NCBI GenBank assembly: GCA_029288895.1
Contig: JARIGK010000001.1
Coordinates: 134,682 to 198,681 of the forward strand
Length of the DNA: 64,000 nucleotides
Direction: 5' to 3'
Source: Candidatus Adlerbacteria bacterium
Lineage (GTDB): Bacteria; Patescibacteriota; Minisyncoccia; Phycocordibacterales; SBAW01
Positions within the stretch are counted from its first letter, which is position 1, and each line of letters starts with the position of its first letter. The notes under the pieces are model-generated. The model worked only from the letters and a program-made list of their open reading frames with translations. It made no database searches and had not been told where the DNA came from. The translations under genes and the position numbers were made by a program. This document shows positions 27,255 to 47,982 of the stretch, in pieces.

Positions 27255-28244
27255 TCACAGGATGGGTTCGTGGCCGTGTTTTTTGAGGAAGTAGCCTTCA
27301 AGAGAGAAGCGGTCGTAGCCGTAGCAGATGAAGGAAAGCGGGATGCCGATCAAGATAAGATGCGGCCAGACAACTTCGCCAAAATAGACAAGCGACAGCG
27401 AAAGCCAAAACAAGAGGAAGATCGAGGTCCAGCGGATTTCAATGCCAAAGATAAAGAAGAGGCCGATGAGGATTTCGATAAGTGCGGCGCCCAAGACAAG
27501 GAAGTGCGGTTCAAACCCTAGGTAGTGGGCAATGGGGTACGGGTGCCCCGCAAGCGGCAACGACGCCACCTGCAGCGCCAAATCGTTATGCAAAATTTTT
27601 GCATAGTACGAGGCATAGATAAGCGCCGTGCCAAAACATACGCGCGCCACAAGGAAGCCGTACGGTGCCCATTTTTTGCGGAACAAAAATGCCAACGCCA
27701 GCGCCTCGCCCAGGTAGTTGGTATAGGTCAGCATGTACGCACCGTGTTTGAGGACTTCGGTAAAGAAGAGAACCAATAATGCGAGCGCTGCGAGCTCTGC
27801 ATAAAAATTAAAGATAAAGCAGACGCCAATAATGACGAGCAACACGCGCACGGCGTTGGTGAGCAGCCCAAACGTGCCTTCGATGGGGAGTTCTGGTCCA
27901 AAGAGCGAGCCGAAATAGGAAGCACCTAAAAGCGAGACGCCAACTGTGATGCGGCTTATGGTTGGTGCATAGGGCGGGAGTTTTTTGAACAAGCCTCCGA
28001 GATTTTCTTCTACGATGTGCCAGAAGGATGTAAAGAAAATGGTAGTGACAACAATAACCACGACAAGCGCCCAAAACATAAATTGGTGCATATTGCTCGT
28101 AGCAACCTGCAATTCAGAAAATGGCGCTGCAGTAAGGCCTGTTTGTATTTGCTCGGGTGAAAGTACGTACACCTCGTGTGCCGAGGCGAGCGCGGGGAAA
28201 AGGGCGCCGAGCGCCGCTGTACATATATAGATGAGCTTCCGCAT
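27255..28244 (-). CDS. Polytopic membrane protein, hypothetical (co-transcribed with the RR-HK pair)
   Basis: Signal peptide plus about nine TM helices. Lies 13 bp downstream of the hybrid HK stop. Confidence 0.45.
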   Translation of the reverse strand: MRKLIYICTAALGALFPALASAHEVYVLSPEQIQTGLTAAPFSELQVATSNMHQFMFWALVVVIVVTTIFFTSFWHIVEENLGGLFKKLPPYAPTISRITVGVSLLGASYFGSLFGPELPIEGTFGLLTNAVRVLLVIIGVCFIFNFYAELAALALLVLFFTEVLKHGAYMLTYTNYLGEALALAFLFRKKWAPYGFLVARVCFGTALIYASYYAKILHNDLALQVASLPLAGHPYPIAHYLGFEPHFLVLGAALIEILIGLFFIFGIEIRWTSIFLLFWLSLSLVYFGEVVWPHLILIGIPLSFICYGYDRFSLEGYFLKKHGHEPIL

Positions 28245-28256
28245 ACGCGGATTGTA

Positions 28257-30326
28257 TCACCCTTCGACCGAGGCGGCGGCTGTGGAGGAGAGTGCTTTTT
28301 TGAATGCCTTCTCTAATTCTTTGAGGCCCACGGGTTTGGTGAGATGATAGTGGAAACCTGCTTCGTGCGCTTTTTCTTTATCTTCTGTTTGGCCGTAGCC
28401 GGTAAGAGCGATAAGCGCTGCGTTTGTTGCGTTGTCTTGTTTCAAGCGGCGCACTACTTCGTAGCCGTCGATGTCGGGCAAGCCAATGTCGAGCACAAGG
28501 ATGTCATGGTCGGCCATACGTGCCGCTTCGAGCGCGGCCAACCCCGAGTAGGCCACGTGTACTTCATGACCGCGCAACTCAAGCAGCCTCTTCAGTGCAT
28601 GCGCTGCTGCCTCGTTGTCGTCAACAACTAAGATGCTGCGTTTATTGCGCACTGCACGCAAGGTACGATTTCCTGTGCCCGTGAGTATAGGTTTTTTTGC
28701 GGGCTTCTCGACGCGACCGCGGATAAGCGGCAGGCGCACGGTAAATTCCGACCCTTTTCCTTCGCCCTCGCTTTTCACTTCAATCGTGCCGCCGTGCATC
28801 TCGACCAGCTGGCGGGTGAGCGGTAGGCCGACGCCCAAGCCCTCTGTCGGTAATTTGCCGCGTTGCACCTGGAAGAAGGGTTCGAAGATGCGCTTTTGCA
28901 TCGTGCGCGAAATACCAATACCGTTATCGCGGAGCGTAAGCACAGCCATGTTTTTATCGTCGCGAAGCGAAAGTTCGATCGTGCCGCCAGGGTTTGTATA
29001 CTTCGCTGCATTGTTTAACAGATTGACGAGTATTTGTTCGACGCGGATAGGGTCAGCTTCCATATAGAGCGGCTCTTCTGGTTTGTGTACATGCAAACGG
29101 TGGCCGCGGCTTTGGAGAAGCGGTTTGGTCGACTCAACAGAGCGGTCGACGATATCTTCGACAAAGACCACTTCTTTGCGCAGCGCCAACTTATTGCGCG
29201 AGATGCGCGATATGTCGAGTACGTCATCGAGCATGCCGCGCATCGCGTTGACGTGCTGGCCGATGGTATTAACGAGTAAGGCCGACTCGCTGTGCTCGTG
29301 GCTTTCCAAGCGCAGGAGCTCTGCAGATGAGAGAATGGCTGCCAAAGGGTTCCGTAGTTCGTGCGCCAGCATCGCAAGGAAATTTTTCTTTGCTTCGTCT
29401 TCGGAGCTAATTTTACTGAGCGTTGTCTCAAGTTCTGTCACGTGGCGTGCGAGTTCTTGTTGTGCATGTTTGCGCTCTTCGACGATTGCCGTAAAGGTCA
29501 AAAATACCGTGCCCATCGTTGCGCTAAAGATCGCAAGCTGGAAGAGCGAGCCATTGGCAAAGGGGCCGTGGCCAAGCAATGTACCGCACAGCGCAACAAG
29601 CGCGGCAAGTGCAATAGAGAGACTCATGCCGCGCGGGCCCGTGCGCAGCGCCACCCACGTCAGCGGGATAAACACGTAGTAGGTAAAGTATGAGCTTTGC
29701 GGCAGCCAAAAAATAAACAGCGACGTGGCAAAGACGAGCAGGGTAAGCAGCGTAAGTTCGATGTATTGGCCGGCCGTACGCTCAAATCGCGGGCGAGAGA
29801 ACCACTTCAACAAGAGCGGTGCCAAAATAAGGATGCCCAATGCGTCGCCCGCCCACCACGCACCCCACATAGAGGGCAGCTCGGTGATGCGTCGTGCGCC
29901 GCTGGCCCACAGGCTTGCGATGCCAATGCTTGCACTCAAGAGCGGTGCAATAAACGCGGTTGCAATAATGCCGATGTTGTCACGCAGCCGAAGTAAAGAG
30001 GGTTGGAAGCCCACGTAGTAGTTTAAAAAATACGCGCCAGCGAGTGCCTCAAGTGCGTTACCTGCGCCTATCATCAGCGCGGCGAATATCGTTGCGCCGT
30101 CAGACAGGTTGACGAGTGCGGCGCCAATAAAGACTGCAGGCCAGAGCCGGTACCCCCACAGGAGAAGTGCTGCAAGTGCCACGGCGCTTGCCGGCCACAC
30201 AAACGTCGCGAAGGTGCCGACGGGTTCAATGCTTAATCCGAGACGCCCCGCCAGGAAGTAGACAAGTGTGAGAAGAATGTAGGGTTCGTATCGAAAGAAG
30301 AGGGTGATAAGGGCTCTTCTATTCAT
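28257..30326 (-). CDS. Hybrid sensor histidine kinase/response regulator (membrane sensor - HisKA - HATPase_c - REC)
   Basis: About 300 aa of multi-TM sensor domain (MASE1-like). H-box LAHELRNPL, the N/G1/G2 ATP-lid boxes, and a C-terminal receiver (LVVDDNEAAAH...DIGLPDIDG). Confidence 0.85.
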   Translation of the reverse strand: MNRRALITLFFRYEPYILLTLVYFLAGRLGLSIEPVGTFATFVWPASAVALAALLLWGYRLWPAVFIGAALVNLSDGATIFAALMIGAGNALEALAGAYFLNYYVGFQPSLLRLRDNIGIIATAFIAPLLSASIGIASLWASGARRITELPSMWGAWWAGDALGILILAPLLLKWFSRPRFERTAGQYIELTLLTLLVFATSLFIFWLPQSSYFTYYVFIPLTWVALRTGPRGMSLSIALAALVALCGTLLGHGPFANGSLFQLAIFSATMGTVFLTFTAIVEERKHAQQELARHVTELETTLSKISSEDEAKKNFLAMLAHELRNPLAAILSSAELLRLESHEHSESALLVNTIGQHVNAMRGMLDDVLDISRISRNKLALRKEVVFVEDIVDRSVESTKPLLQSRGHRLHVHKPEEPLYMEADPIRVEQILVNLLNNAAKYTNPGGTIELSLRDDKNMAVLTLRDNGIGISRTMQKRIFEPFFQVQRGKLPTEGLGVGLPLTRQLVEMHGGTIEVKSEGEGKGSEFTVRLPLIRGRVEKPAKKPILTGTGNRTLRAVRNKRSILVVDDNEAAAHALKRLLELRGHEVHVAYSGLAALEAARMADHDILVLDIGLPDIDGYEVVRRLKQDNATNAALIALTGYGQTEDKEKAHEAGFHYHLTKPVGLKELEKAFKKALSSTAAASVEG

Positions 30327-30332
30327 GCGCTG

Positions 30333-31007
30333 TTATGCGACAAATCGGTATCCGACGCCGCGCACTGTTTCAAAGCGGGGCGACATTTCTGTGCGTTCGA
30401 GTTTTTTGCGCAAGTTTTTCATGTGGACGTCGAGCACGTTGCTCCACGTCATAGAGTTAAAGTCCCACACATGGCTCGAGAGTTCTTCGCGGGTAAATAC
30501 TTCGCCTGGGCGGCGCAAGAAACATTCAAGTAGTGCGTATTCTTTCAGCGTAAGAGAAATTTCTTCACCATCGACATAGACTTTGTGCGTTGCAGTGTCG
30601 ATGGTAATGTCGCCGACCGTATGCACGACGGTGGGCATGGTTTGCGGGCGGCGGGAGACTGATGCGATGCGGGCAATAAGTTCTTCGTGTGAAAAGGGTT
30701 TGACGACGTAGTCATCGGCACCAGCGTTCAGGAGCTCCACTTTGGTAGTGGTGTCGGACGAGCCAGTCAAAATAATGATAGGGGTCTTGATCTCCGCTTC
30801 GCGGATTTTTTTGGTCAACGCCAGGCCGCCCATGCCAGGGAGCCCCAAGTCCATAATCATCACGCCGTAGTCGGTGTGGTAGAGCTGGGCGCGGGTAAAA
30901 GCTTTGTCGCCGTCATCGACCCAGTCCACTGCAAAACCCTTTAATTCTAATATCTTGGTAAGGTTAGCCCCGAGCTGCTGCTCGTCTTCGACAAGTAGTA
31001 ATCTCAT
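30333..31007 (-). CDS. OmpR-family response regulator (REC + winged-helix)
   Basis: MRLLLVEDEQQL...DLGLPGMGG receiver, and a C-terminal trans_reg_C (ETVRGVGYRF). Confidence 0.9.
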   Translation of the reverse strand: MRLLLVEDEQQLGANLTKILELKGFAVDWVDDGDKAFTRAQLYHTDYGVMIMDLGLPGMGGLALTKKIREAEIKTPIIILTGSSDTTTKVELLNAGADDYVVKPFSHEELIARIASVSRRPQTMPTVVHTVGDITIDTATHKVYVDGEEISLTLKEYALLECFLRRPGEVFTREELSSHVWDFNSMTWSNVLDVHMKNLRKKLERTEMSPRFETVRGVGYRFVA

Positions 31008-31016
31008 ATATACAGC

Positions 31017-31163
31017 CTACTCTATAGAGGTCTCCATGAACATATCATGAAGAAAGTATTTTTCGGTAGCCTGTAAGGCTTCTTCGCGGTTTTTGCACTC
31101 ACGGCAAAAGCGGGCGAATACCTCGTCCGCTTCACGCTCAAATCGTGCCAGATATGGTTCCAT
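31017..31163 (-). CDS. Small CxxC protein (48 aa), hypothetical
   Basis: MEPYLARFEREADEVFARFCRECKNREEALQATEKYFLHDMFMETSIE. Its ATG overlaps the 3' end of the upstream 64-aa gene and it ends 10 bp before the RR start. Confidence 0.3.
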   Translation of the reverse strand: MEPYLARFEREADEVFARFCRECKNREEALQATEKYFLHDMFMETSIE

Positions 31164-31332
31164 ACAAGTTGTTTGGCACTACCTTGTACATGCGCATGAT
31201 GCGCTCTGCCATGCGCGGGTGGGTGCGCTTGACGTGGTTCCACATCTTGATCTTATTCATAAGTGGCTTGGCTTCGGAGCCCAGCTCCTTGTACCCGCAC
31301 TCGCTGCAAATAAGTGTGACGTTCATAGACAC
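31138..31332 (-). CDS. Small CxxC protein (64 aa), hypothetical
   Basis: MSMNVTLICSECGYKELGSEAKPLMNKIKMWNHVKRTHPRMAERIM...; same orientation as the downstream RR-HK operon. Confidence 0.35.
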   Translation of the reverse strand: MSMNVTLICSECGYKELGSEAKPLMNKIKMWNHVKRTHPRMAERIMRMYKVVPNNLYGTISGTI

Positions 31333-31357
31333 ACAGTATAGAAGGGGGCGGGTGATA

Positions 31358-31564
31358 TTAAAGTGAAGACCTAACGTCGTCGACGCGTTGCTTCAAAAGC
31401 TGCTCCATGTCGGTAATAGCTTTGGTGATTTCTTTTGCAGTGTCATGCGCTTCGCCGCTTTTGCCTTCGAGTAAGAGCTCCAATAATTGCGCTTGGCTGT
31501 AGAGCACCGACAGCGCATTGCGCAGGTCGTGGTTGAGCTTTGAAATCTTTTCTGGCAATTCCAT
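31358..31564 (-). CDS. Stand-alone DHp/HisKA-like mini-protein (69 aa) with an H-box
   Basis: MELPEKISKLNHDLRNALSVLYSQAQLLELLLEG...; NHDLRNAL matches the HisKA H-box. TATACT lies about 12 nt upstream of the ATG. The upstream part of the track ORF looks non-coding. Confidence 0.35.
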   Translation of the reverse strand: MELPEKISKLNHDLRNALSVLYSQAQLLELLLEGKSGEAHDTAKEITKAITDMEQLLKQRVDDVRSSL

Positions 31565-31625
31565 CGTGTGTGCAGTATAGCAAAACGAAAGACGGCGACC
31601 AGTGTAGTACTGGCCGCCGTTGTTT

Positions 31626-31961
31626 TCACAGCAGCATGAGCTGCCGAACTTTTTTGTATTCCTCCAAAGGTCTGAGGTTGCTGCGTTGCGCATCGTATTG
31701 GACCCAGTGCCGCTGTTCGGGCGTGGCTTGCATGACCCACGCTGCAATCTCACACATTTGATCGTATTGTTTTTTCGGTATCCAGTCGCGGCCAGCTTTT
31801 GCCACCACTGGTAATGCATGAGTCTTGCGGGCGAAGGTTCTAAAGCTCTTCACCAGTACGAAGTAGTGTTCATGTCCTCCGAAGAGGAATGAGCACGTCG
31901 TGTCCGTTGGGGGATTGGTCTTCCAGCAGAGATCAGCTGCTGTGATGTTTGCCAAGGGCAT
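31626..31961 (-). CDS. Hypothetical protein
   Basis: 112 aa from the internal ATG (MPLANITAADLCW...). Confidence 0.3.
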   Translation of the reverse strand: MPLANITAADLCWKTNPPTDTTCSFLFGGHEHYFVLVKSFRTFARKTHALPVVAKAGRDWIPKKQYDQMCEIAAWVMQATPEQRHWVQYDAQRSNLRPLEEYKKVRQLMLL

Positions 31962-32039
31962 GCGTACGCTCCATTTTTGGTTAGAGAATACTTGAACTCT
32001 AGTAATTATTATCCTAAAGTTTGAATGAAATGTCAATGA

Positions 32040-32435
32040 TTGAATGAAAAACCCATGCAGGACAAGGGTTTTCCACAGATACAAAATTGTACATATCCAA
32101 CCTCATCTGGTATACCCAATATAGACGCACACAAAAATGGAAAGGGTAGCGTAATGGTTCCATCAACTGCCTCTAAAGAGAATACTGAGCCACGGGCCAA
32201 TCGTCTCAGTATTGCGGACGCTAATCGTCCGCCGCGCAAACATGGCAGTCGATGTTGTCGCAAAGGTTGCAAAGGCACAATAGGCATTTACGTGCCGCAG
32301 TCCATTTTCGTTTGGACACGGCAATTTTGCTCTCGTGAATGTCGCGATATTCACGACAGTAAAATAGCGCGCCCTTTGTTCCTTCCCGCGTCGACAGCTA
32401 TGTTCCTCCTTCTCTCATCGTGCGTCTCGTCTTAG
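32040..32435 (+). CDS. Hypothetical Cys-rich protein
   Basis: Contains CCRKGCKGT...CSRECRD (possible zinc finger). Start uncertain (alternative ATG at 32154). A terminator follows. Confidence 0.3.
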   Translation: MNEKPMQDKGFPQIQNCTYPTSSGIPNIDAHKNGKGSVMVPSTASKENTEPRANRLSIADANRPPRKHGSRCCRKGCKGTIGIYVPQSIFVWTRQFCSRECRDIHDSKIARPLFLPASTAMFLLLSSCVSS

Positions 32436-32458
32436 GACGGGGCGCTTTTTTTATGTAA
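32430..32458 (+). terminator. Intrinsic terminator (with G-U wobbles)
   Basis: CGTCTCGTC TTAG GACGGGGCG followed by CTTTTTTT. Confidence 0.45.
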
Positions 32459-32465
32459 AGAAAAA

Positions 32466-32492
32466 GGCCGCGCTACATGCGCGGCCCAGAAC
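32466..32492 (-). terminator. Intrinsic terminator overlapping the stop codon of 32473..33189
   Basis: GGCCGCGC ATGTA GCGCGGCC with a T-run (TTTTTCTTTAC) on the minus strand. Confidence 0.6.
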
Positions 32493-33189
32493 TCCGTAGT
32501 TGAAACTCATCTTCTGGGAGAGGAAATATATCCTTCCAAAAAGGGAGTGGGTTATGCCCTGCAGGGTCACGTTTCGATTCAGGCTCCCATTCGCCGAAGA
32601 CTTCAACAGCGTCATCGTTAATGTAGAGCCTTTCATTCCATCGTGCCGGCCGTGCTTCCCGGTTCAAGATAAAACGAGTCGTCATCGTCGCGCGCCACAT
32701 GCCCAAATAGACGCTAGACTCATGGCGGTTGCGTGGGTCGGCGAAATCTCGAATTTCAGGCGTGCTGATTTGCACCAGCTCACCTCGGGCTACTTTTACC
32801 CGGCCTTCGCCCCACATGCCGCGGATGGCAGTCGTCTCGGCTGTTTCGCCGTAGATGCCGGTCTCGCTTGTGGTGCGAATGACCGCGTCTTCTCCCTCTC
32901 GTGTAGTTGGAATGATTCTGCCGGCAACGATGCGATAGTGTTCGATGAGCTCCATTCCGGCAACGCGCAGCAACACTTCGGATTTTTTCGAACAGCACAC
33001 GCAATTGCCGTTATCGAGACGGGCGAACTCAATCTCCCGTTTTTGATTAATGGCCTTTGCCAAGTTCGCCAATTTGCGCGGACTACTTCGCTCAAACTCC
33101 TCGAGGTCAAAAGGCTTCCCGTCGAATGTTGTGCATCCAACCAGAAAGACTCGCAGATCTTTAATGGAATCGAATGTATAGAACTTCAC
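32473..33189 (-). CDS. Hypothetical protein (downstream of the second hybrid kinase)
   Basis: 238 aa, soluble, with CVCC and several conserved-looking Arg/Trp residues. Confidence 0.4.
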   Translation of the reverse strand: MKFYTFDSIKDLRVFLVGCTTFDGKPFDLEEFERSSPRKLANLAKAINQKREIEFARLDNGNCVCCSKKSEVLLRVAGMELIEHYRIVAGRIIPTTREGEDAVIRTTSETGIYGETAETTAIRGMWGEGRVKVARGELVQISTPEIRDFADPRNRHESSVYLGMWRATMTTRFILNREARPARWNERLYINDDAVEVFGEWEPESKRDPAGHNPLPFWKDIFPLPEDEFQLRSSGPRM

Positions 33190-33291
33190 TTGGGCCTCCT
33201 AAAACGTTGCGTAGTAGGATAACCCCCCGGACTCTGTACCCACACTATCGTTTTTTAAAGAAAAAGTGAAGCTCAGCAGTAGATGAAGGAT

Positions 33292-35352
33292 TTATCCTTG
33301 CACACGGCCCAGCGCCGTTTGAAGATCGCTGAGGCTAATAGGCTTAACGAGGTATTGGTCGAACCATTCGCGCGCATCCATGCGTCGCGAATCGCCCAGC
33401 CCATAGCCCGTCAGTGCGATAAGAGTGCCGCGATAGTTCTGGCCTCGCAGCATGCGCGCCACGTCGTAGCCGTCCTGGTCGGGGAGGCCGATATCCAAGA
33501 AGATGAGGTCGGGCGAAATGCTGCGTGCTTTGGCGAGACCCTGCGCACCATCGTAGGCGTACTGCACGCGTGCACCGTGGAGTTCGAGCAGGCGCCCAAT
33601 GCCGGCCGCCGCGGCATCATTGTCGTCGATAATAAGGACAAGCGGTTGTTTTGATTTGGGTTGGGACCCTGGCGTGCGGATATCCGTGGCGCGCGCCTCG
33701 CGTTTTGGAAGCATCGTGTTGCCCGAGCGCATCAGCGGTATAGTCACTACAAAGCGGCTGCCGAGCCCGGCGCCATCGCTGTATGCCTCGATGGTGCCGC
33801 CGTGGAGTTCGACGAAGTTGCGTACGAGTGTAAGCCCAATGCCGAGACCTTTTTTATTGCGCGCATCTTGCTCGACCTGGTGGAAGGGGAGGAAGATGGT
33901 CTCAAGTTCGTTCGGGCGAATACCAATGCCGCGGTCGGACACTTCGATGCTTGCATTGTGGCCCTCTTCGCGCATCGAAAGCGTAATTGTTGTACCCGAT
34001 GGCGAGTATTTCGACGCGTTCGTCAGCAAGTTGGAAAACACTTGCTCCAAACGCACTGCGTCGCCAAGCACATGGAGTTGCTGTTTTGGCATATTCAACA
34101 CCAAACGCTGATGCAATTCTTTGCGGTGATGTTCGGTCGAAAGCACAGCGCGTTTCAGTACGACATCGAGCGATACCTGTTCGCGCTTCAAATCGACTTT
34201 GCCTTCCGAAATGCGGGAGATGTCGAGGAGGTCGTCGAGCAGGCGGCGGATAGTGTCCATCCGGTTTTCCATCATGGTAAGCAATTCGGTATCTTCTGCG
34301 TCGCGGCCGCCTTTTAATTTCATCAAATCGATGGATGAAATAACAGGCGCCAGCGGGTTGCGCAATTCGTGCGACAAAATGGCAATAAAATCATTTTTTG
34401 CTTTCGACTCTGAACTTTCGCGCGCCACAGCGTTGCGAAGTGTTGCCAACTGCGAGTGCATGATGTTGGTGTTGACGCGGCGATCTTCTTCAAGCGAGGT
34501 GATGATAAAAAAGAGCAGCGTGAGCATGATCAGCAACAGTTCTGTCTGGAATAGGTAGTCGACAACTAGGGGGGCTGGCGAATACAGTGCAACGCTCGTA
34601 ATGGCAAAGCATGAGGTGAGTAGCAGTGCGAGCGTAATAAATCGCGGCCGCATTTTAAGTGCGATGTAGAAGAGGGGTGCCATCAAAAAATATACCGTCG
34701 GAATGCCGCCAAGCGTCCCCATTTGGCGGACAAACAGCAAGTAGTCGAGCCCAAGCAGCGCCACGAAGACAAGTACGAGCTCGACCATTTCGCCAGCGTT
34801 GCGCGAAAAGCGCGGCTTGGCCAACCAGCGCAGCAAGAACGGCGTCATGATAAGGAAGCAGAAGAGTGTCGCGACATAGGAATGCTCCCACGTAAGCCCT
34901 AAATCGGAGAGGCCGCGATATGCGCGCACCAAAAGTCCGAGCGTTGGCGAAATAAGAGAGATGCACACTGCTGTTGCCATAAAGAAGAACGTGTCGCGAT
35001 ACCGTCGGAAGAGCGGGTCGATGCGTGCCTCAAGCAAGAGCCATGCACCCGCCAACCCTTGCAACACTTCAAATATCGGCAAGAAAATAATTGAAAGGAG
35101 AGAGCCGCCTGTCGCGATGTTTGCGACAAGCGCCGAAAGGTAGACGACGGGCCATAGGCGCGTACCGGCGAAGTAGAGTGCGGCCAGTGCGATGCCCGAT
35201 GCCGGGTTAAAGCGGGCCATGGGTGGAAGCACGACGCGAGCAAGCGCAAAGACAGCAACATAGAACACAAACAGGGCTGCTGCCGCGCGCCATTCGCGGA
35301 TACTATAGACTCCCGCTAATGCCCGGAGGCGTTTATTCATTGCTTCTACCAT
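33292..35352 (-). CDS. Hybrid sensor histidine kinase/response regulator, paralog of 28257..30326
   Basis: Same architecture as the first hybrid HK: multi-TM sensor, H-box LSHELRNPL, HATPase_c, and a C-terminal REC (LVLIIDDNDAAA...DIGLPDQDG). Confidence 0.85.
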   Translation of the reverse strand: MVEAMNKRLRALAGVYSIREWRAAAALFVFYVAVFALARVVLPPMARFNPASGIALAALYFAGTRLWPVVYLSALVANIATGGSLLSIIFLPIFEVLQGLAGAWLLLEARIDPLFRRYRDTFFFMATAVCISLISPTLGLLVRAYRGLSDLGLTWEHSYVATLFCFLIMTPFLLRWLAKPRFSRNAGEMVELVLVFVALLGLDYLLFVRQMGTLGGIPTVYFLMAPLFYIALKMRPRFITLALLLTSCFAITSVALYSPAPLVVDYLFQTELLLIMLTLLFFIITSLEEDRRVNTNIMHSQLATLRNAVARESSESKAKNDFIAILSHELRNPLAPVISSIDLMKLKGGRDAEDTELLTMMENRMDTIRRLLDDLLDISRISEGKVDLKREQVSLDVVLKRAVLSTEHHRKELHQRLVLNMPKQQLHVLGDAVRLEQVFSNLLTNASKYSPSGTTITLSMREEGHNASIEVSDRGIGIRPNELETIFLPFHQVEQDARNKKGLGIGLTLVRNFVELHGGTIEAYSDGAGLGSRFVVTIPLMRSGNTMLPKREARATDIRTPGSQPKSKQPLVLIIDDNDAAAAGIGRLLELHGARVQYAYDGAQGLAKARSISPDLIFLDIGLPDQDGYDVARMLRGQNYRGTLIALTGYGLGDSRRMDAREWFDQYLVKPISLSDLQTALGRVQG

Positions 35353-35431: not shown

Positions 35432-35971
35432 TTATGCGGATGTTCGTTTGAGGAGATAGCCCGCGCTCCCAAGAACCGCTACCCCAGAAAGGATGAGCGA
35501 AATGATAGTGGGGAGTGGGTCACCGCCCTCGCCCGTGTTTGGGACCCCAGGAATGGCTGTGGTCGATGTGCCCAATACTACGCCGCCCGAGCCCGAGGAG
35601 CCGCCTGTGGTGCTTGGCGTATTGGTGATGATGCCACCACCACCGCCCCCGCCACCGCCGCCAGACGAGCTACTGCCGCCGCCTGAACTTGGTGAGCTAA
35701 CGACGCTGCCGCCAAGCGAGCCTCCAGGTGAGGATGTTACCGTGCCGCCAAGCGAGCCGCCCGATGACGTTGCGACGCTACCGCTAAGGCTGGAACCCGT
35801 CGTGCTTGCGCTTGGGGTGCTCGTTGTTGTTGTCGATGTCGTCGTCGTTGACGTGGACCCTCCCGCACTCAAGGTGCCGGTGATCTCGGAGGCGCTTGCG
35901 ACGCTCGCCATACTTCCTGCGATGAGCAGTGCGGAGAGAATTCGTGCTGTGCTCTTAGTCATGAGATGCAT
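35432..35971 (-). CDS. Secreted Ser/Thr/Gly-rich protein with a C-terminal sortase-type sorting signal (VPNTG + TM + KRTSA)
   Basis: Signal peptide. Low-complexity T/S/G tracts including G12. C-terminus is AIPGVPNTGEGGDPLPTIISLILSGVAVLGSAGYLLKRTSA. Confidence 0.5.
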   Translation of the reverse strand: MHLMTKSTARILSALLIAGSMASVASASEITGTLSAGGSTSTTTTSTTTTSTPSASTTGSSLSGSVATSSGGSLGGTVTSSPGGSLGGSVVSSPSSGGGSSSSGGGGGGGGGGIITNTPSTTGGSSGSGGVVLGTSTTAIPGVPNTGEGGDPLPTIISLILSGVAVLGSAGYLLKRTSA

Positions 35972-35995
35972 TGCGTTTACTTGCTAATACGATTG

Positions 35996-37105
35996 TTAGA
36001 ACGGAGTTGTGGTCGACATTGCGCCGAAGGTTGTCGTGTAGTTGCCAGTTGGCGTACCAGACGGTACTGCTGCCTGGATGTAGACATCGATCTGGCGTCC
36101 CGGCGTTGTCGACGAGGTGTCACCGACGAGCATCATGTTGCCGCTGTAGTCGTTATTTGCCTCAAGCATCGAGGACGCGGTGGTCGATGCGTTCGATGAC
36201 TGTGGAGACCAGATGCGGATGTGATTTGCTGTCGCAAAGGTTGTCGACGAATTTGCCGTGTTGATGAAGTCGCCGAACTTCATAGCGAAGTTGCTTTCGG
36301 TGTCCGGAACAACGAGGTGGAGTATCCACTCCCACCCATGCTCAAACGTTCCATCTGCTGTGGCGCTCGTCTGCACGCTGTCGACACCTGTCACTGCAAG
36401 TGGAGTAGTTGATGTTGATGTCGTTGTTGTGCTCGTGCTCGAAGATACTGGTTGCACGTAGTAGGAGTTTGATGCCATGAGGCCACTCGTGCGGCCAGTT
36501 GCCGTGATCGCTGCCGGGCCCACTGCAAGTGACGGCACTGTCATGCTCTGTGTAAAGTTGCCGCTTGCGTCAGCAGAAACGGTCGTTGTTGCGCCGCCGA
36601 ACATAATGTCGACTTGCTCGGACGAATTGAAGTTTGTACCGAGCGCGTTGAACATGGAACCTGGTTCGCCGCTGTAGGAGCTCAGCGCCAAGAACGCGGT
36701 TGATGTTGCAGCCGGCGTGTAGCTGAAGGTCAGCATGTTGGATGCCACGTTGCCCGTCGATGATGCGGTCGACGACGAAACATCAGCACCGACCATAACC
36801 GTCACTGTGCCCGACGCCGTTGGCATCACGTTGAAGGTAAACGTCGTGCCGCTGCCCGACACTGTGCCAACGGTGGCATTAGTTGCCGTGATGTTCGCAC
36901 TGGTGAGGCCGTTTACCGCTTGCGAGAACGTTGCAGTGACGGGGATAGTCGTCGCTGACGTACTCGAGGAGACGGTCGAAGAAAGAACTACCGTTGGGCC
37001 GCCCGAGGCTGCCGACGAGAGGGATGCCAAACCTCCAAGTACTGCAACCGCCGCTATCATGGCGACTGCCATGCTTGAAAGTATCCCGATAGATTTTGCT
37101 TTCAT
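35996..37105 (-). CDS. Secreted S/T-rich surface protein (Ig-like repeats), hypothetical
   Basis: Signal peptide (MKAKSIGILSSMAVAMIAAVAVLGG); 369 aa rich in S/T/A/N. No C-terminal sorting signal. Confidence 0.45.
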   Translation of the reverse strand: MKAKSIGILSSMAVAMIAAVAVLGGLASLSSAASGGPTVVLSSTVSSSTSATTIPVTATFSQAVNGLTSANITATNATVGTVSGSGTTFTFNVMPTASGTVTVMVGADVSSSTASSTGNVASNMLTFSYTPAATSTAFLALSSYSGEPGSMFNALGTNFNSSEQVDIMFGGATTTVSADASGNFTQSMTVPSLAVGPAAITATGRTSGLMASNSYYVQPVSSSTSTTTTSTSTTPLAVTGVDSVQTSATADGTFEHGWEWILHLVVPDTESNFAMKFGDFINTANSSTTFATANHIRIWSPQSSNASTTASSMLEANNDYSGNMMLVGDTSSTTPGRQIDVYIQAAVPSGTPTGNYTTTFGAMSTTTPF

Positions 37106-37167
37106 ATAGTAATACCTAATACCTAGTTAATAAGTTTCGAACGAGGCTTCAGTAAAACAGGCGAGTA

Positions 37168-37205
37168 GTGAACGCTCGGTGAAAAGCCGCGTGAAGCACT
37201 TCACG
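37168..37205. promoter_or_regulatory. Direct-repeat array (GTGAA x3 at 11-12 bp spacing) ending in the 16-bp palindrome CGTGAAGCACTTCACG
   Basis: Lies in the divergent intergenic region between the surface-protein gene (start 37105) and the sortase gene (start 37238). Confidence 0.35.
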
Positions 37206-37237
37206 ATTGCTTTATAAAAAACCCGCACACTAGGTAT

Positions 37238-37840
37238 GTGTCAGCACGAATACCATATGGTGCAGCGATAGCCGTCATTGTTGTGGCGGCGTTCGTGTTT
37301 GTTTTTGTGTTGTGGCATGCAGTGTGGGGCGGCGGGGAGGAGAGCGATATCGTCCCGGCGAATATGCCTGCAGCGGTCCTTGCTGCGACAACCTCGATGC
37401 CTGCGCGTTTAGAAATACCCGTGCTGCATGTTGATGCGCGCGTGCAATACGTCGGTGTGACATCAAAAGGCACCATGGGTGTGCCGAGCAACTTTACCGA
37501 TGTTGCGTGGTACAAGTACGGCGCGGTGCCGGGGCAGGCGGGCAGCGCTGTCATGGACGGTCATGTTGATAACGCGCTGTCGTTGCCAGGGGTGTTTAAA
37601 CATTTGGCCGATATCCATGTCGGCGATGATCTCTATGTTCAAACGAATGATGGCAGCACACTGCACTTCCGTGTGTACGATGTCGAGACGTACCCGTACG
37701 ACCAGGTGCCGATGCAAACCGTGTTTGCACAAACGCGCGATGCGCACCTCACGCTTATCACGTGCGGCGGTACCTGGGTGCAAAGCAAAAAAACGTACGA
37801 CCATCGCGTGGTGGTGTACTCGGCATTGGTGGGGAGTTAA
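37238..37840 (+). CDS. Sortase (class E/F-like transpeptidase)
   Basis: N-terminal TM anchor, LEIPVLHVDARV, catalytic His (MDGHVDN), TLxTC (LTLITCGG), and Arg (RVVVYSAL). GTG start. Confidence 0.8.
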   Translation: MSARIPYGAAIAVIVVAAFVFVFVLWHAVWGGGEESDIVPANMPAAVLAATTSMPARLEIPVLHVDARVQYVGVTSKGTMGVPSNFTDVAWYKYGAVPGQAGSAVMDGHVDNALSLPGVFKHLADIHVGDDLYVQTNDGSTLHFRVYDVETYPYDQVPMQTVFAQTRDAHLTLITCGGTWVQSKKTYDHRVVVYSALVGS

Positions 37841-43187: not shown

Positions 43188-43277
43188 AATTTGCCCACCT
43201 TAGTGGACGACTTTAGAACCATTGATTGGGTGAGAGAGTACCCTGCGCCTGCATTCACGCTGCGACAGGTGCAGGAG

Positions 43278-45065
43278 TTACTGAGGTAGTGTCTCCGTTG
43301 TATCGACGCTTTCTACTACAGCTGGAATTGGTTCAGGCAATTGGACACCATGCATCTTAACGCGTCGCGCATTCAATCGATTTTCTTGGCCAATTTGTAC
43401 TAAAGCTTTTGCAGCTCTCTCAGCAATGGTTTCCGTGTCATCTGCAGTCCTGTTGTTCAGACCACGAGCAGCACGAACAATGCGATGCATTCTATCGCCC
43501 TTTTCAGCCTTAAATATTCTGTAAAAATCTTCGACACTGAGCTTGCTTATTAATTCAGTATCTTCTGGATTCCAGCCATGTTTAATAATCATATCTTCTA
43601 ACACGTCAGCTGGGTTGCGGTCATCAACAAATCTGCTACGCGCTGCATCGAATGCCTGCGCAAGTTCCTCATCTCTTTCTCCATCGTCAAATAGACTTTG
43701 ACGTCCATCGAACAAATCTTTCTCGTCCCTGCGTTCTGTAACGTATTTGGTTATAAGCTCCGTTGCTTCCGTGTTTCTTCCAAACTCTTTGAGCAGCTTA
43801 ACTGTTGAGTTTAGATTGGAAGGGTGAAGGACTCCAATATTTTCCATCGACGCACTAAAAATTTTGTCCATCACTTCTTTTTCGTTATCGTCAAAAGAGC
43901 CGTGGTATGCAGTCCAAGCATCGTGTATATCCTGCTCTTGTTGGGCTTTGTTGGCCACCTTACTTTGCTTCTCAGCTGCCTTTAGGAGAGCTTCTTCATC
44001 AAAGATTCCACTCTGCACGGTCTTATGGATAGCCAAGTCAAAGTCATCAGCACTAAAAAATTTATACTTTGCCATCAACTCAGACCACTTCCTGTCCGTG
44101 TCTGGAATTTGGTTATTATTTCGCAACATACCATGCAGGCGCCCCATATCTGTTAAGAACTCGAATGGCGGCGGTTCGCCGTCCTTCTGATATTTTTCCC
44201 AACCGAATAGCGTTGCCGAGTGAAAGGCTTGGTAGAAAAGCTCTGAATAATCAGTTTGTAATATCCCTTCGAGTCGCGCGCAAATTCTCTCTATCTTTTT
44301 GAGTACTCTGATGTTGGTGATACCAAGAGTGACGCAAAAATCATGCAGCAGTTTTTTGTTACCCGTTGCATCTGCGTCAGGGAAAGCAATGTCCGCTGCT
44401 TCTTGAGGAGTCGGATCAAATTGCAGATGGGTATCAACGACCTTTTCAAGTTGTTTATGGAAAACTTCCTTTTGTCCATCCGCAATTTCTTCTTCGTTGA
44501 GCAAGAGAACAACTTTACACTTGCGTTGTTCTTTTAGCATGGATATAAGTCCGAATACTTCTATGACGTCCAATCCGTTCCCAGCTCTTTCAAGGTCGTC
44601 TATGCATATGATTTGTTCGCCCACAGAGTGAAAGAGAAGTTTTTCAGCTAGTGCAGTTCCGATGTAACTTTGGACTACGGGATTCTGACCCGCCTGCGTT
44701 AACAGCCACCGCACGGAAGAGCCGAGCGTGTCTCGTAAATTTTTCGGCTCCAAAGCTCCTAGTGTCCACTCCTCTCCGATTTTTTCAACGGGTTTTGTAG
44801 CTTCATAGATTGCGTAGCGCAAGTCGTCAATTTTCTTTACTCCAAATAACGATACATATGCGTAGCGCGTTAACTTAATCTTCCCAGCATCTTTTGCTTC
44901 TTTAAGAAAATAGTTCCAACCGTATGTTTTGCCAACGCCCCATTTGCCGCTAATACAAAGCACTTCAGGGTCGGCTCTTTCCAAAAAACGAGTTATTTCT
45001 GCTTTTACAAGTCGTATAGACACGCCCCTATTGTAGCGATAAAAGCTCATGTGAAAAGAGCTCAA
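43278..45065 (-). CDS. KAP-family P-loop NTPase (PifA-like)
   Basis: Walker A ISGKWGVGKT, KAP-type Walker B ICIDDLER, and a long alpha-helical C-terminal half; 595 aa. Confidence 0.8.
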   Translation of the reverse strand: MSSFHMSFYRYNRGVSIRLVKAEITRFLERADPEVLCISGKWGVGKTYGWNYFLKEAKDAGKIKLTRYAYVSLFGVKKIDDLRYAIYEATKPVEKIGEEWTLGALEPKNLRDTLGSSVRWLLTQAGQNPVVQSYIGTALAEKLLFHSVGEQIICIDDLERAGNGLDVIEVFGLISMLKEQRKCKVVLLLNEEEIADGQKEVFHKQLEKVVDTHLQFDPTPQEAADIAFPDADATGNKKLLHDFCVTLGITNIRVLKKIERICARLEGILQTDYSELFYQAFHSATLFGWEKYQKDGEPPPFEFLTDMGRLHGMLRNNNQIPDTDRKWSELMAKYKFFSADDFDLAIHKTVQSGIFDEEALLKAAEKQSKVANKAQQEQDIHDAWTAYHGSFDDNEKEVMDKIFSASMENIGVLHPSNLNSTVKLLKEFGRNTEATELITKYVTERRDEKDLFDGRQSLFDDGERDEELAQAFDAARSRFVDDRNPADVLEDMIIKHGWNPEDTELISKLSVEDFYRIFKAEKGDRMHRIVRAARGLNNRTADDTETIAERAAKALVQIGQENRLNARRVKMHGVQLPEPIPAVVESVDTTETLPQ

Positions 45066-45279
45066 ATGAGAAGAGTTCTTCAGAACAGCGCCGAGTGCTT
45101 CTGCAACACCTGTTCTTGAATCTCACATTGAAGGACAAACAGACGACCTACACGCTGAAAAGCCCATCGAGATACTTTCGATGAGGGTTCAAGAGAAGCT
45201 CGACGCCCAGAAAAACTTCGAACTCCAAAAAACGCCTAAAAGTAAGGCTCGTCTAGAATCTGTTTCGAAAATCGACCCT

Positions 45280-45322
45280 TTGCTCCGCGCGATAGAGGAT
45301 GTTCGAACCTGTATTGCGGTAA
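45280..45322. repeat. Direct repeat A (att-like): TTGCTCCGCG + GATAGAGGATGTTCGAACCTGT...
   Basis: The first 10 nt (45280-45289) match the tRNA-Asn 3' end and flank (53311-53320). Copy A aligns with copy B at about 79% identity. Confidence 0.5.
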
Positions 45323-45371
45323 CTATCTGACTCAAGTAAAGTGGCAGACGGCAGTTTTGAAGGAGACGACA

Positions 45372-45659
45372 ATGACCGTGTGGTTCCCGCGTTACTGGTG
45401 TATGGGGTGCGGAGCACGCTTCGTGTTGGAAGCCGATGCTCTTGAGACCAACCTGACTCCTGAAATCATCCTCTCAGCAATGAGTGCAGGGGAGGGTCCT
45501 TTCAAGCAGCTCAGGACGCATCATGACTGCGGCTTGCATAAAGCGCAAGAAGCAGGGAAGGCGTTGGGAGCTGGTGGGCCCGGGCTCTACTCTTCCAACT
45601 TCGAGCCTTATTGGGGCGAAGCGAAGTTCTGCGGTATGAAGAAGAAAGTTCCAACCTGA
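45372..45659 (+). CDS. Small CxxC protein, hypothetical
   Basis: SD site GGAGA upstream of the ATG at 45372. Begins MTVWFPRYWCMGCGARF. A terminator follows. Confidence 0.4.
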   Translation: MTVWFPRYWCMGCGARFVLEADALETNLTPEIILSAMSAGEGPFKQLRTHHDCGLHKAQEAGKALGAGGPGLYSSNFEPYWGEAKFCGMKKKVPT

Positions 45660-45688
45660 TGACATCCTGCGTTACGAATTTTAGAGGC

Positions 45689-45722
45689 CGCTATCCGCAA
45701 GGAGCGGCCTTTTCTTTTTTGT
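45689..45722 (+). terminator. Intrinsic terminator
   Basis: AGGCCGCT ATCCGCAAGG AGCGGCCT followed by TTTCTTTTTT. Confidence 0.5.
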
Positions 45723-45791
45723 CTAATTATAAAAGTTTTGATGTCCAATTGGGGTATCTAAAATACCCTTGCAAAATAATCTCCAAAAAAT

Positions 45792-45832
45792 GGCTCCGCC
45801 TGATAGAGGACGTTCGAACGTGTTTAAGGTAA
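45792..45832. repeat. Direct repeat B (att-like): GGCTCCGCCTGATAGAGGACGTTCGAACGTGT...
   Basis: About 79% identical to repeat A. Contains the perfect palindrome ACGTTCGAACGT. Confidence 0.5.
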
Positions 45833-45850
45833 AAACCTCCACTTTATGTT

Positions 45851-46645
45851 TCAGACATTTTTTGATAGATAATCTTTCATGACTGCTTTAGCGGCAAAGT
45901 CAAAAGCCGAAGCTGTTATAGGAAGCTTTGCGGCTGCTTTCGCAATATTTTTCCAATCCTCAGGCAGTTCTCCATTCCCAAGTTCTTCTTGGTAAGCAAG
46001 TAGCTGAACGACAAAATCATAATGGCCAGTACTCAAGGTCATGGCAAGCATTAATGCTTTGTGAATTTCTAGCTTCGGACCATAATTGAAATGATATTTA
46101 TTTCCTTTACCGCGGTATCCGTAAAGCTGTGAACCAAATGCGCTTGCGTGAGAACTTTTGCTCAATATTCTAAATGCCTTTTTGGCAGGTTTTCCTCCGT
46201 GAGCAACAATATCTCTTTCAATCGTTCCCTCACTGAAAGCATCCTTAAAAGCTGGATTTTTCTGATAATCATCCTCTGTTTCTTTGAGAAACAAATCACG
46301 AAGTTCTGGATGTGAAAAAAGATATATCAGCATTGATAAATCACTCATTATGCTTCTTACGATCACAAACGCATCTCCGTACAACCCTCTTTCCATAAGT
46401 ATCCTTATCGTTTCAAGATGTTGAATAGACCTGTTCACCAACATAAGTTGGATCGTTTTGAATTTCGCTTCTTCGGTGCCCGGAGTCTCTTTTACTTCAT
46501 TAATCAGTAATGCGACTGCATCTTTCAGAACCCCTAGACCTTCCCAATAAATGGGATAAAGCAGACTGAGAGTCATTTTTGTGCTCTCTTTAATTTCTAG
46601 TTCCAGCGTTTCAAAGTCTCGTCTTCCTTCCACTGGTTTAGACAT
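45851..46645 (-). CDS. Hypothetical protein (third gene of the LexA-like / Y-family-polymerase operon)
   Basis: 264 aa, alpha-helical. Ends 32 bp downstream of the polymerase gene. Confidence 0.4.
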   Translation of the reverse strand: MSKPVEGRRDFETLELEIKESTKMTLSLLYPIYWEGLGVLKDAVALLINEVKETPGTEEAKFKTIQLMLVNRSIQHLETIRILMERGLYGDAFVIVRSIMSDLSMLIYLFSHPELRDLFLKETEDDYQKNPAFKDAFSEGTIERDIVAHGGKPAKKAFRILSKSSHASAFGSQLYGYRGKGNKYHFNYGPKLEIHKALMLAMTLSTGHYDFVVQLLAYQEELGNGELPEDWKNIAKAAAKLPITASAFDFAAKAVMKDYLSKNV

Positions 46646-46677
46646 ATTTATGTAGATCCTAGCATGTTTAAGAGCGA

Positions 46678-47982
46678 TTATTTAACCTCACCAAGCATCG
46701 GTATTCCTATGCGTTGACGTCTATTTTCACCTTTGAATAGTTTAGATGTGCGACCTGGGGCATCGCCTCGTTCGTTTGTGTGAGCGCCCCGCTTCATGGC
46801 TTTCATAGTGGAACCTAGGTAGACAGTGTGTTTGCCGAACTTACTGTCCATTGCATCAACTGCCGCATAGACGGGCTTCCATTTAATAATCTCAGATACT
46901 GCCCCAAATAAGTCCATCTGTATTTCTTTATTGTGCTCAAGCCCCATCAATACAACGCCAGTAGCACGGTAGGGTGTGCGAGGGCGATACACCTTATCAA
47001 ACGACTCACGCACAAGGCGAATAAACTCGTTAGGTAATGATTGAGGAGTGGCAAGTGTTAATTCAAGTCCTGAATAGCGAAACTCTTGAGTCTTAAGAAA
47101 GAAGAATATCTTCTTAGGCGCAAGCTCATACCGACGCGCCTTGATACAGGCATTTTCAATATTCTTTGAGAGTTGGGAGAACACGAACTCTTTGTCAGCA
47201 GATGCAGGAGTAAATGTTTTGGTTTTACTTATGCTCTGGTAGTCGTGCTTTTCCTCAGTTGTGAGGGGGTACACAAACTCTCCACGTAGCTCGTGCCATA
47301 TCTCGCGATACGGTTTGCTCATGTTCGCGTCTATCCACTCAACGGGCTTTTGAGCGTATTGGAGAGATGTCTGAATGCCGTGTTGTTTCAAGAAAGCAGA
47401 TGTCTGTGGGCCAATGCCCCAGATTTTATCTATCGGGAGTTTGCTTAAGTACGTCTCTACTCTGTTTGCAGGGATAATAGTCAGCCCCGATGGTTTCTTC
47501 CACTTGGAACCTACCTTTGCAAGCACCTTATTTGGTGCGAGGCCGATAGAAAAGGTCATTCCAAGTTCTGTGTCCAAGTCGTGCTTTATGGCCTCTGCTA
47601 TGGCCTCATATGACATCCTGAGAGACCTGCGCATGCCTGTTAAATCAGCAAAGCATTCATCAATACTGTATTCCTCAACAGCCTCTGTATATCGCCTCAC
47701 AATGGCGTACATACGCTTAGAGAAGAGACTGTAGGTCTCGTAGTCAGAAGGGAGAATGATGACCTCGGGGCATATCTTTTTAATCTCTCGCAGAGACATG
47801 CCACGCTTCACGCCCATAGCCTTCAGCTCGTAGCTCATGGAAGATGCGATGCCGCGTTCTTTGCCAGTAACCACAGGTTTGCCTTTAAGTGCTGGGTTTA
47901 CGGCGGCTTCGCATGACGCAAAGAACGAGTCCCCATCAATATGTATTATTGCGCGGGGGAATGAGCGGATAGAGAGCGGCAT
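46678..47982 (-). CDS. Y-family DNA polymerase (UmuC/DinB-like)
   Basis: HIDGDSFFASCE (Y-family motif I), SIDECFADLTG, and little-finger region; 434 aa. Confidence 0.85.
   Translation of the reverse strand: MPLSIRSFPRAIIHIDGDSFFASCEAAVNPALKGKPVVTGKERGIASSMSYELKAMGVKRGMSLREIKKICPEVIILPSDYETYSLFSKRMYAIVRRYTEAVEEYSIDECFADLTGMRRSLRMSYEAIAEAIKHDLDTELGMTFSIGLAPNKVLAKVGSKWKKPSGLTIIPANRVETYLSKLPIDKIWGIGPQTSAFLKQHGIQTSLQYAQKPVEWIDANMSKPYREIWHELRGEFVYPLTTEEKHDYQSISKTKTFTPASADKEFVFSQLSKNIENACIKARRYELAPKKIFFFLKTQEFRYSGLELTLATPQSLPNEFIRLVRESFDKVYRPRTPYRATGVVLMGLEHNKEIQMDLFGAVSEIIKWKPVYAAVDAMDSKFGKHTVYLGSTMKAMKRGAHTNERGDAPGRTSKLFKGENRRQRIGIPMLGEVK

Follow-up and report, generated by a model that had tools for sequence, protein, structure and literature searches.

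Hybrid histidine kinases without a recognisable Hpt module are common in genome surveys and usually remain unexplained, and the question of how such kinases could pass a phosphoryl group to a response regulator is raised again by a gene cluster of Candidatus Adlerbacteria bacterium (contig JARIGK010000001.1). The window, by which we mean the whole stretch of DNA analyzed, comprises 64 kb of this contig of at least 219 kb. The cluster occupies positions 27255-35352 and all its genes lie on the minus strand in the order HK2, 238-aa protein, 111-aa open reading frame (ORF), DHp68, ZnR62, sp48, RR, HK1 and DoxX-like protein, HK1 and HK2 being hybrid histidine kinases and RR the single OmpR-type response regulator. 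It had been claimed in an earlier, sequence-only reading of the locus that hybrid kinases normally need an Hpt module to reach a response regulator and that none is visible here, either fused or as a separate gene. The requirement is not a strict one, since DHp-type shuttles are known in Spo0B and ChpT (PMC3433190) and in PhyT (PMC5898713), and the second statement overlooked DHp68, a conserved 68-aa DHp protein with an intact H-box histidine. The chances seem to us evenly balanced that the cluster encodes a multistep His-Asp-His-Asp relay in which DHp68 would take the histidine-phosphotransfer step in place of Hpt.

DHp68 begins MELPEKISKLNHDLRNALSVLYSQAQLLE and its H-box, LNHDLRNAL, contains the acceptor histidine (H12), an acidic residue directly after it and an asparagine at position +4. 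Against the Pfam HisKA model (PF00512) the protein scored 22.5 bits (E 1.2e-4), below the cut-off of 26.9, and a precomputed PF00512 match is present on most members of its family, including an NCBI entry identical to DHp68; some members are named 'histidine kinase dimerization/phospho-acceptor domain-containing protein' by NCBI. The NCBI record calls the same 68-aa protein as a gene, its orthologues are 75% (68 aa) and 58% identical, and dN/dS against an orthologue amounts to 0.16 at a dS of 0.98. Judged by these comparisons, DHp68 is a real gene under purifying selection. The AlphaFold2 (AF2) model predicts a two-helix hairpin (H3-31/H38-67) with a mean pLDDT of 93.3; the 68 residues make up the hairpin alone, without a C-terminal alpha/beta (CA-like) domain. 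The top Foldseek matches of this model are DHp domains of histidine kinases (TM-score 0.75-0.80, rmsd 1.6-1.8 Å); their E-values do not reach significance, which is to be expected when the hairpin has only 68 residues. The isolated GacS DHp in complex with RetS (7n0e) is also among the fold matches. Among PDB sequences DHp68 matched the KdpD DHp (E 0.0027) with the phospho-acceptor histidine aligned. The profile of the family matched only HisKA kinases there, KdpD (1.5e-5), EnvZ (3.5e-4) and HK853-type kinases among them, together with weak matches to the isolated EnvZ DHp structures 1joy, 5b1n and 5b1o (E 0.1-0.5), and no match to Spo0B, ChpT or Hpt was found in the same search.

The family to which DHp68 belongs consists of similarly small proteins, referred to below as mini-DHps. 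HMMER, run exhaustively on 1.84 billion cluster representatives, found 28 matches at E≤1e-3, 26 of them 63-97 aa long and none a full-length kinase, and a profile search of a collection of 5.8 billion proteins gave 81 matches of 63-119 aa. The names of the sources include 'Patescibacteria group bacterium' and 'Candidatus Paceibacterota'. The family consensus reads aHDLRNxLSxIYxyAQlLE; the 28-sequence alignment shows no variation at H12, D13, N16 and L28 and almost none at R15, L18 and Q26. When the family hidden Markov model (HMM) was run over 639 kb of loci, the minis scored 75-96 bits and the DHp domains of kinases at most 29 bits, and the same model detected no mini-DHp in 26 control loci around other kinases. 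In pairwise comparison DHp68 is 31% identical to the DHp domain of HK2 and has no significant match to that of HK1; its origin as a recent fragment of either kinase was considered and rejected on these values and on the separation by the family HMM. In the literature we found no description of this Patescibacteria family of about 70 aa or of its coupling to hybrid kinases or to receiver-only (REC-only) proteins, which is not proof of novelty.

A locus search with a narrower family alignment yielded a single metagenome locus, so that the genomic neighbourhoods of the mini-DHps were compared over 10 distinct loci, and in nine of these a mini-DHp lies within a few genes of an output-less receiver, which is either fused to a hybrid kinase or encoded by a free-standing gene. 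At least four gene arrangements are represented. The order seen in the window (HK2, variable genes, DHp, ZnR, RR, HK1) is found in the loci designated L001/L002, L031 (a Paceibacterota assembly), L035 and L038. In L036 and L037 a MASE1 hybrid kinase is directly followed by the mini-DHp with gaps of 36 and 9 nt, and in L029 the mini-DHp is convergent with an OmpR-type RR beside genes for an extracytoplasmic function (ECF) sigma factor and a PAS-GAF hybrid kinase. The operons of L030, L032 and L033 contain a non-hybrid kinase, a REC-only gene (118-132 aa) and a mini-DHp in adjacent or overlapping frames, which corresponds to the arrangement of Spo0F and Spo0B; the mini-DHp of L034 is solitary. 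Upstream of the REC-only and mini-DHp genes of L032 the kinase is encoded in two pieces (6580..7578), PAS-HisKA (197 aa) and HATPase_c (118 aa), a split that is either genuine or due to a frameshift.

The domain search for Hpt proposed in the sequence-only reading was run on all greedily picked non-overlapping window ORFs of at least 50 aa, and the reading proved right in that no canonical Hpt, fused or separate, was detected in the cluster or in the window ORFs scanned. There was no Pfam Hpt match in the cluster proteins at E≤0.1, in the 51 other window ORFs of up to 300 aa at E≤0.05 or in the 19 larger window ORFs at E≤0.001, and none of eight related loci with precomputed Pfam matches carries an Hpt (PF01627) annotation. 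Neither other two-component genes in the 64-kb window nor a stand-alone HATPase_c gene among the scanned window ORFs were found.

Both kinases are intact hybrid kinases with a multi-transmembrane sensor, HisKA, HATPase_c and receiver (REC) encoded on the same strand, as had been described, and this is borne out by Pfam and by their motifs. HisKA, HATPase_c and the C-terminal receiver are present in one polypeptide in each, all above the Pfam gathering cut-offs, and MASE1 (PF05231), which covers the N-terminal multi-transmembrane region, passes its gathering score in both. The scores are 110.9 bits for MASE1, 54.9 for HisKA, 96.3 for HATPase_c and 86.7 for Response_reg in HK1, and 33.9 (cut-off 29.8), 53.0, 92.9 and 66.0 bits, respectively, in HK2. 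Room had been left for one of the kinases to lack key catalytic residues; H, N, G1, F and G2 and the receiver DD, D, T and K are intact in both (H322, N-box 435, G1 467, F 481, G2 496, REC D569/D570, D613, T642 and K664 in HK1; H328, N-box 441, G1 473, F 487, G2 502, REC D576/D577, D620, T648 and K670 in HK2). The H-box of both reads HELRN, the HisKA phosphatase motif. The kinases had also been called duplicated, of which the paralogy stands and a recent event does not: they are 35% identical over 639 aa, and in related genomes each has its own orthologues, at 80% (L001) and 66% (L031) identity for HK2 and at 74% and 60% for HK1. Because of this divergence and these separate orthologues, HK1 and HK2 are, by their sequences, old paralogues. 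A scan of genome contigs with HK1 returned mostly distant kinases, the sole close relative being an orthologue of 49% identity in a Saccharibacteria metagenome-assembled genome (L003); the loci so obtained were used as negative controls.

The receivers of the kinases show features of their own. In all hybrid kinases linked to a mini-DHp the receiver carries (T/S)GYG after beta-4, and in the HK1-type receivers a histidine replaces the aromatic switch residue. It has been reported that a FATGUY motif and a variable switch position mark intermediary (Rec-inter) receivers which exchange phosphate with DHp-type partners (PMC9981736). The hybrid receivers resemble these FATGUY/Rec-inter receivers in sequence, a resemblance and not a test. 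The receiver of HK1 is found alone in L038, where a 139-aa REC-only gene (5758..6177) corresponding to it directly follows RR and the HK1 gene is otherwise gone, with HK2, mini-DHp, ZnR and RR all kept. The retention of this receiver suggests that its role is separable from its own kinase and that HK2 acts in the same pathway.

RR matches Response_reg (97.6 bits) and Trans_reg_C (90.6 bits), which places it in the OmpR/PhoB family, and the receiver residues E7/D8, D53, T81 and K103 are present; its orthologues are 95% and 83% identical, with dN/dS of 0.03. The earlier statement that only HK1 adjoins the single OmpR-type regulator, in an operon of regulator, kinase and membrane protein, was upheld, the gaps of 6 nt between RR and HK1 and of 12 nt between HK1 and the DoxX-like gene fitting an RR-HK1-DoxX operon. 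About 30 nt upstream of the RR start the box TTCATGATATGTTCAT lies in a block of 19 columns, 17 of them invariant over five genomes, and the DNA flanking the box has diverged in the same five-genome comparison. As a direct repeat, TTCATGATAnnTTCAT at 31036..31051 (-), it is nearly invariant upstream of the RR genes of the window, L001, L031, L035 and L038, and even with up to 2 mismatches allowed TTCATGATATGTTCAT occurs only once in the window. The 11-bp spacing of its two TTCAT half-sites matches the way in which dimers of the OmpR/PhoB family usually bind. The box is thus likely to be the operator of RR itself, and from its conservation and half-site spacing autoregulation of the RR-HK1 operon is likely. 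With a relaxed pattern 7 matches were found in the window against 4.2 expected, which is not above chance, so that no regulon can be claimed; a similar repeat with one mismatch at 32025..32040, which overlaps a promoter-like site, is not above chance alone. In the window and in L001 the box lies inside the coding sequence of sp48, which is 75% identical to its L001 orthologue (dN/dS 0.14); L031, L035 and L038 have no sp48 and retain the DNA box alone.

Counted from the RR start codon, DHp68 starts 351 nt upstream; two small genes intervene, and DHp68 is apparently part of the same transcription unit as RR. In the window, L001 and L035 a terminator hairpin comes first, followed by a T-run, a TATACT element and the ATG of DHp68, which suggests that a transcription unit DHp68-ZnR62-(sp48)-RR-HK1-DoxX starts at DHp68.

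In the proposed relay HK1 and HK2 would autophosphorylate on H322 and H328, respectively, and the phosphoryl group would pass to their own C-terminal receivers, at D613 in HK1 and D620 in HK2. DHp68, dimerised to a four-helix bundle resembling Spo0B or ChpT's DHp part, would accept it on H12 and deliver it to D53 of RR; the dimerisation, the phosphorylation of H12 and the direction of transfer are what we infer here. RR in turn would bind the TTCAT-N6-TTCAT box before its own gene and control the RR-HK1-DoxX operon. If the steps run through DHp68 to RR in this manner, two sensors would converge on one regulator via one shuttle.

Counterparts of such a step have been described. Spo0B and ChpT are dimeric helical-hairpin histidine phosphotransferases which form a four-helix bundle with the histidine on helix 1, and their place is between a receiver devoid of output (Spo0F, or that of CckA) and a regulator that binds DNA (PMC3433190). 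DHp68 is like Spo0B of Bacillus sporulation and ChpT of the Caulobacter CckA-ChpT-CtrA pathway in its predicted hairpin and in its genomic position near REC-only or hybrid receivers, whereas the C-terminal alpha/beta domain of both, a degenerate CA domain, has no equivalent in DHp68, which is predicted to be the hairpin alone and by its sequence has a HisKA-type H-box. PhyT, which acts in the general stress response of Sphingomonas and was long assumed to be a phosphatase only, shuttles phosphate from the REC-only protein SdrG to the regulator via a conserved histidine (PMC5898713). SdrG is of the FATGUY type and the hybrid receivers described here carry a similar (T/S)GY signature; PhyT, however, is larger and membrane-bound, belongs to an alphaproteobacterial general-stress system and sequesters the regulator, whereas DHp68 is soluble, minimal and encoded in Patescibacteria. 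Hpt domains (PF01627; C-terminal in ArcB and BarA, also Ypd1 and ShpA) have the same role as that proposed for DHp68, a histidine shuttle between a hybrid receiver and the terminal regulator, but they are monomeric four-helix bundles with another sequence signature, to which DHp68 shows no Pfam match. Near DHp68 in size and fold is domain A of EnvZ, the isolated DHp of the Escherichia coli kinase (67 residues). In vitro the isolated EnvZ DHp forms a homodimer that takes up phosphate and hands it on to OmpR, and it also removes phosphate from OmpR~P. It is an engineered kinase fragment, whereas the mini-DHps are a natural family of free-standing genes under purifying selection. DHp68 also falls in the class of HisKA proteins without HATPase ('split kinases', Amin et al. 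2013, PMC3591291), for which trans-phosphorylation by a separate CA protein has been proposed; the Patescibacteria family of about 70 aa and its linkage are not described there.

Several points weigh against the relay. Gene content, catalytic residues, the outcome of the Hpt scan, selection on DHp68, its family, the predicted hairpin, the coupling to output-less receivers and the DNA box are what the analysis shows, and all mechanistic steps are inferred. The contexts reduce to only about four or five independent gene arrangements, the mini-DHp of L034 is without two-component neighbours, the REC-only proteins of the HK, REC-only, mini-DHp operons are without the TGY signature, and DHp68 lacks the extra alpha/beta domain of Spo0B and ChpT as well as any sequence match to either. 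DHp68 further keeps the HisKA phosphatase motif H-D-x-x-N, which fits a phosphatase equally well. A DHp68 dimer could then be a stand-alone phosphatase that acts on phospho-receivers through this motif and sets the off-rate, a natural counterpart of EnvZ domain A, with the kinases phosphorylating RR directly or their own receivers. The phosphatase motif HE/DxxN/T is strictly kept as HDxRN across the mini-DHp family, and Zhu, Qin, Yoshida and Inouye reportedly found in 2000 that the isolated EnvZ DHp dephosphorylates OmpR~P. The gene neighbourhoods would look the same if a phosphatase were encoded beside the receiver on which it acts; and of the HisKA proteins in SMART 3.66% are without HATPase, 1.7% being without HATPase and yet keeping the phosphatase motif (PMC3591291). 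We consider a phosphatase rather unlikely nonetheless, as HK1 and HK2 carry the same motif, so that a separate enzyme seems redundant, and the hybrid receivers would be left without a route to RR. The histidine, moreover, is not strictly needed for HisKA phosphatase activity and is still invariant in all 28 aligned minis. PhyT had been taken for a phosphatase on the same grounds and turned out to be a phosphotransferase (PMC5898713).

The 6-nt gap between RR and HK1, as found in classical cognate pairs, also tells against the relay, since direct transfer from HK1 to RR is possible, and so does L003, where an OmpR-type RR lies beside the HK1 orthologue, convergent to it, with no mini-DHp within ±10 kb. 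Both would suit a system with no relay, in which HK1 and possibly HK2 phosphorylate RR directly, the fused receivers are sinks or autoregulatory, and DHp68 is a modulator that pairs or competes with a kinase DHp. Inhibition of one DHp by another is seen between RetS and GacS, and 7n0e shows that heteromeric DHp contacts exist. A modulator appears improbable, however, when DHp68 is only distantly similar to the DHp domain of HK2 and matches that of HK1 not significantly; a decoy copy of a specific kinase is at odds with the clear separation of minis from kinase DHp domains by the family HMM, a purely steric inhibitor would leave the strict conservation of H, D and N unexplained, and the mini follows a free receiver in the HK, REC-only, DHp operons and does not adjoin a particular type of kinase. 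Another consideration unfavourable to the relay is that the Hpt scan covered the 64 kb of a larger contig and that Hpt genes are often unlinked to their kinases, so a canonical Hpt encoded outside the window might serve them and the role of DHp68 might be unrelated or accessory. This we regard as very improbable, given that no Hpt was met among the ORFs scanned or annotated in the eight related loci and that the pairing of mini-DHps with output-less receivers would need a separate explanation. Finally, DHp68 could supply the acceptor half of a kinase that is split. The CA domain of HK1 or HK2 would phosphorylate it in trans, it would donate to RR, and the fused receivers would be bypassed. The acidic residue after the histidine, the general base in autophosphorylation, is invariant in the family, and the kinase upstream of the mini-DHp in L032 is itself divided into PAS-HisKA and HATPase_c genes. 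Such a role has been proposed for HisKA proteins without HATPase (PMC3591291), but here it seems extremely improbable: HK1 and HK2 each possess complete DHp and CA domains, a stand-alone HATPase_c gene was not met among the window ORFs scanned, and the minis associate with receivers and not with orphan CA domains.

HK1, HK2 and RR are ordinary members of known families, and the relay principle is already established; a relay through a mini-DHp would be a minimal version of the Spo0B/ChpT-like shuttle. That Patescibacteria, members of the candidate phyla radiation (CPR), use free-standing DHp hairpins of about 70 residues as a generic histidine phosphotransfer module which replaces Hpt is a credible proposition, one we lean slightly against. 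If true, it would give the smallest known Spo0B-type shuttle, working in relays fed by hybrid kinases or by pairs of a kinase and a REC-only protein, and several sensors could converge on one regulator in very small genomes. A shuttle would set the smallest unit that suffices for His-Asp-His-Asp relays and add a third solution besides Hpt and Spo0B/ChpT/PhyT, and it would improve how signalling is annotated in Patescibacteria, a group of poorly known physiology. If instead a phosphatase, DHp68 would be a natural case of a free-standing HisKA phosphatase, and such enzymes are uncommon as well. Either way the locus compactly combines two sensors and one regulator with one shuttle or phosphatase and a candidate operator, and DHp68, being small (68 aa), easily synthesised and purified and possessing a single histidine to mutate, is a candidate that can be tested cheaply.

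Table 1 Features of the two-component gene cluster, listed in the direction of transcription (window coordinates)
Feature	Position	Strand	Basis
HK2, MASE1-HisKA-HATPase_c-REC hybrid histidine kinase, 686 aa	33292..35352	-	Pfam, catalytic motifs, orthologues
Soluble 238-aa protein, function unassigned	32473..33189	-	Position downstream of HK2 conserved
Intrinsic-terminator-like hairpin	32465..32487	-	9-bp stem, 8 G-C pairs, then TTTTTCTTT
Promoter-like site TTGACA-17-GATAAT, 11/12 match, upstream of 111-aa ORF	32008..32036	-	Sequence motif
111-aa ORF in variable segment	31626..31961	-	No tblastn match in related loci
Terminator-like hairpin 3' of 111-aa ORF	31592..31620	-	Hairpin in the sequence
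DHp68, 68-aa stand-alone HisKA/DHp hairpin, candidate histidine phosphotransfer shuttle	31358..31564	-	HisKA match, orthologues, AF2
ZnR62, 62 aa, C-x2-C...H-x4-H, zinc-finger-like	31138..31326	-	Conserved in relatives
sp48, 48-aa ORF, overlaps ZnR62 3' end by 26 nt	31017..31163	-	L001 orthologue
Direct repeat TTCATGATATGTTCAT (TTCAT-N6-TTCAT), 16 nt, likely RR operator	31036..31051	-	Five-genome conservation
RR, OmpR-family response regulator, 224 aa	30333..31007	-	Pfam Response_reg and Trans_reg_C
HK1, MASE1-HisKA-HATPase_c-REC hybrid histidine kinase, 689 aa	28257..30326	-	Pfam, catalytic motifs, orthologues
DoxX-like membrane protein, 329 aa, last gene of RR-HK1 operon	27255..28244	-	Pfam DoxX

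The segment of 1.46 kb between the gene for the 238-aa protein and RR contains at least three small genes that are conserved in related genomes (Table 1). A longer ORF of 153 aa that shares the end of DHp68 (31358..31819) was rejected as the true gene; it contains an internal terminator (31620..31592), and both the orthologues and the gene called by NCBI begin with the ATG of the 68-aa protein. TATACT elements resembling -10 sequences lie only 9-13 nt before the start codons of DHp68 and ZnR62 (31565..31600 and 31327..31350 on the minus strand), and similar ones were found in L001 and L035, which suggests that the 5' leaders of both genes are very short or absent. ZnR62 is 94% identical to its orthologue in L001 and 74% to that in L031 (dN/dS 0.08) and is present also in L035 and L038; it is more conserved than DHp68 and in this lineage always lies between DHp68 and RR. 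No family match was obtained for ZnR62. The DoxX-like protein passes the Pfam cut-off of 23.6 with 25.2 bits; its orthologue in L031 is 58% identical, and L002 and L038 are without one.

The 238-aa protein that follows the second kinase had been presented as a soluble protein of unknown function with a terminator inside its stop codon. The terminator is there, the TAG stop lying in the loop of the terminator-like hairpin 32487..32465, but the protein is not an orphan: it has two homologues of 51-53% identity, and the one examined (L038) directly follows the HK2 orthologue. In L001, L031 and L035 the position after HK2 is occupied by proteins of 286-316 aa, that of L035 with a NUDIX match of 22.7 bits; the 238-aa protein shows a weak local hhalign match (probability 55%) to these proteins. 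The protein has no Pfam or NCBIfam match, and its AF2 model, built from a 3-sequence alignment, is unusable (pLDDT 40). It is a positionally conserved and fast-evolving partner of HK2, and nothing about it suggests an Hpt. Convergent with its gene on the plus strand is an ORF of 131 aa (32040..32435) with a C-terminal cysteine-rich stretch similar to FCSxxC, which ends at a terminator-like hairpin of its own (32422..32445, plus strand) and whose N-terminus has a weak match to an ORF that L001 carries at the corresponding site (pairwise E 4e-5); it may be a real, divergently transcribed gene.

Next to HK2, within 35432..37840, two Ser/Thr/Gly-rich secreted proteins are encoded beside a sortase gene (37238..37840, plus strand). 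One has a Big_12 domain and the other ends in VPNTGEGG followed by a transmembrane helix and the tail KRTSA, and the two are likely sortase substrates; this sortase neighbourhood is conserved upstream of HK2 in L001 and L031. The rest of the window is ordinary chromosome with genes for RpoC, DnaG, RpoD, HisRS, TruB, ribonucleotide reductase, MurA and MreB. An island of low GC content (37-47% against 51-58% in the flanks) extends over approximately 43200..53400 and encodes a KAP P-loop NTPase, a Y-family polymerase (IMS), an S24 LexA/UmuD-like peptidase, DUF5677 and DUF5659 proteins and a serine recombinase split over the overlapping ORFs 51738..52574 and 52534..53352. It abuts tRNA-Asn (53313..53385, minus strand) and is probably an integrated mobile element.

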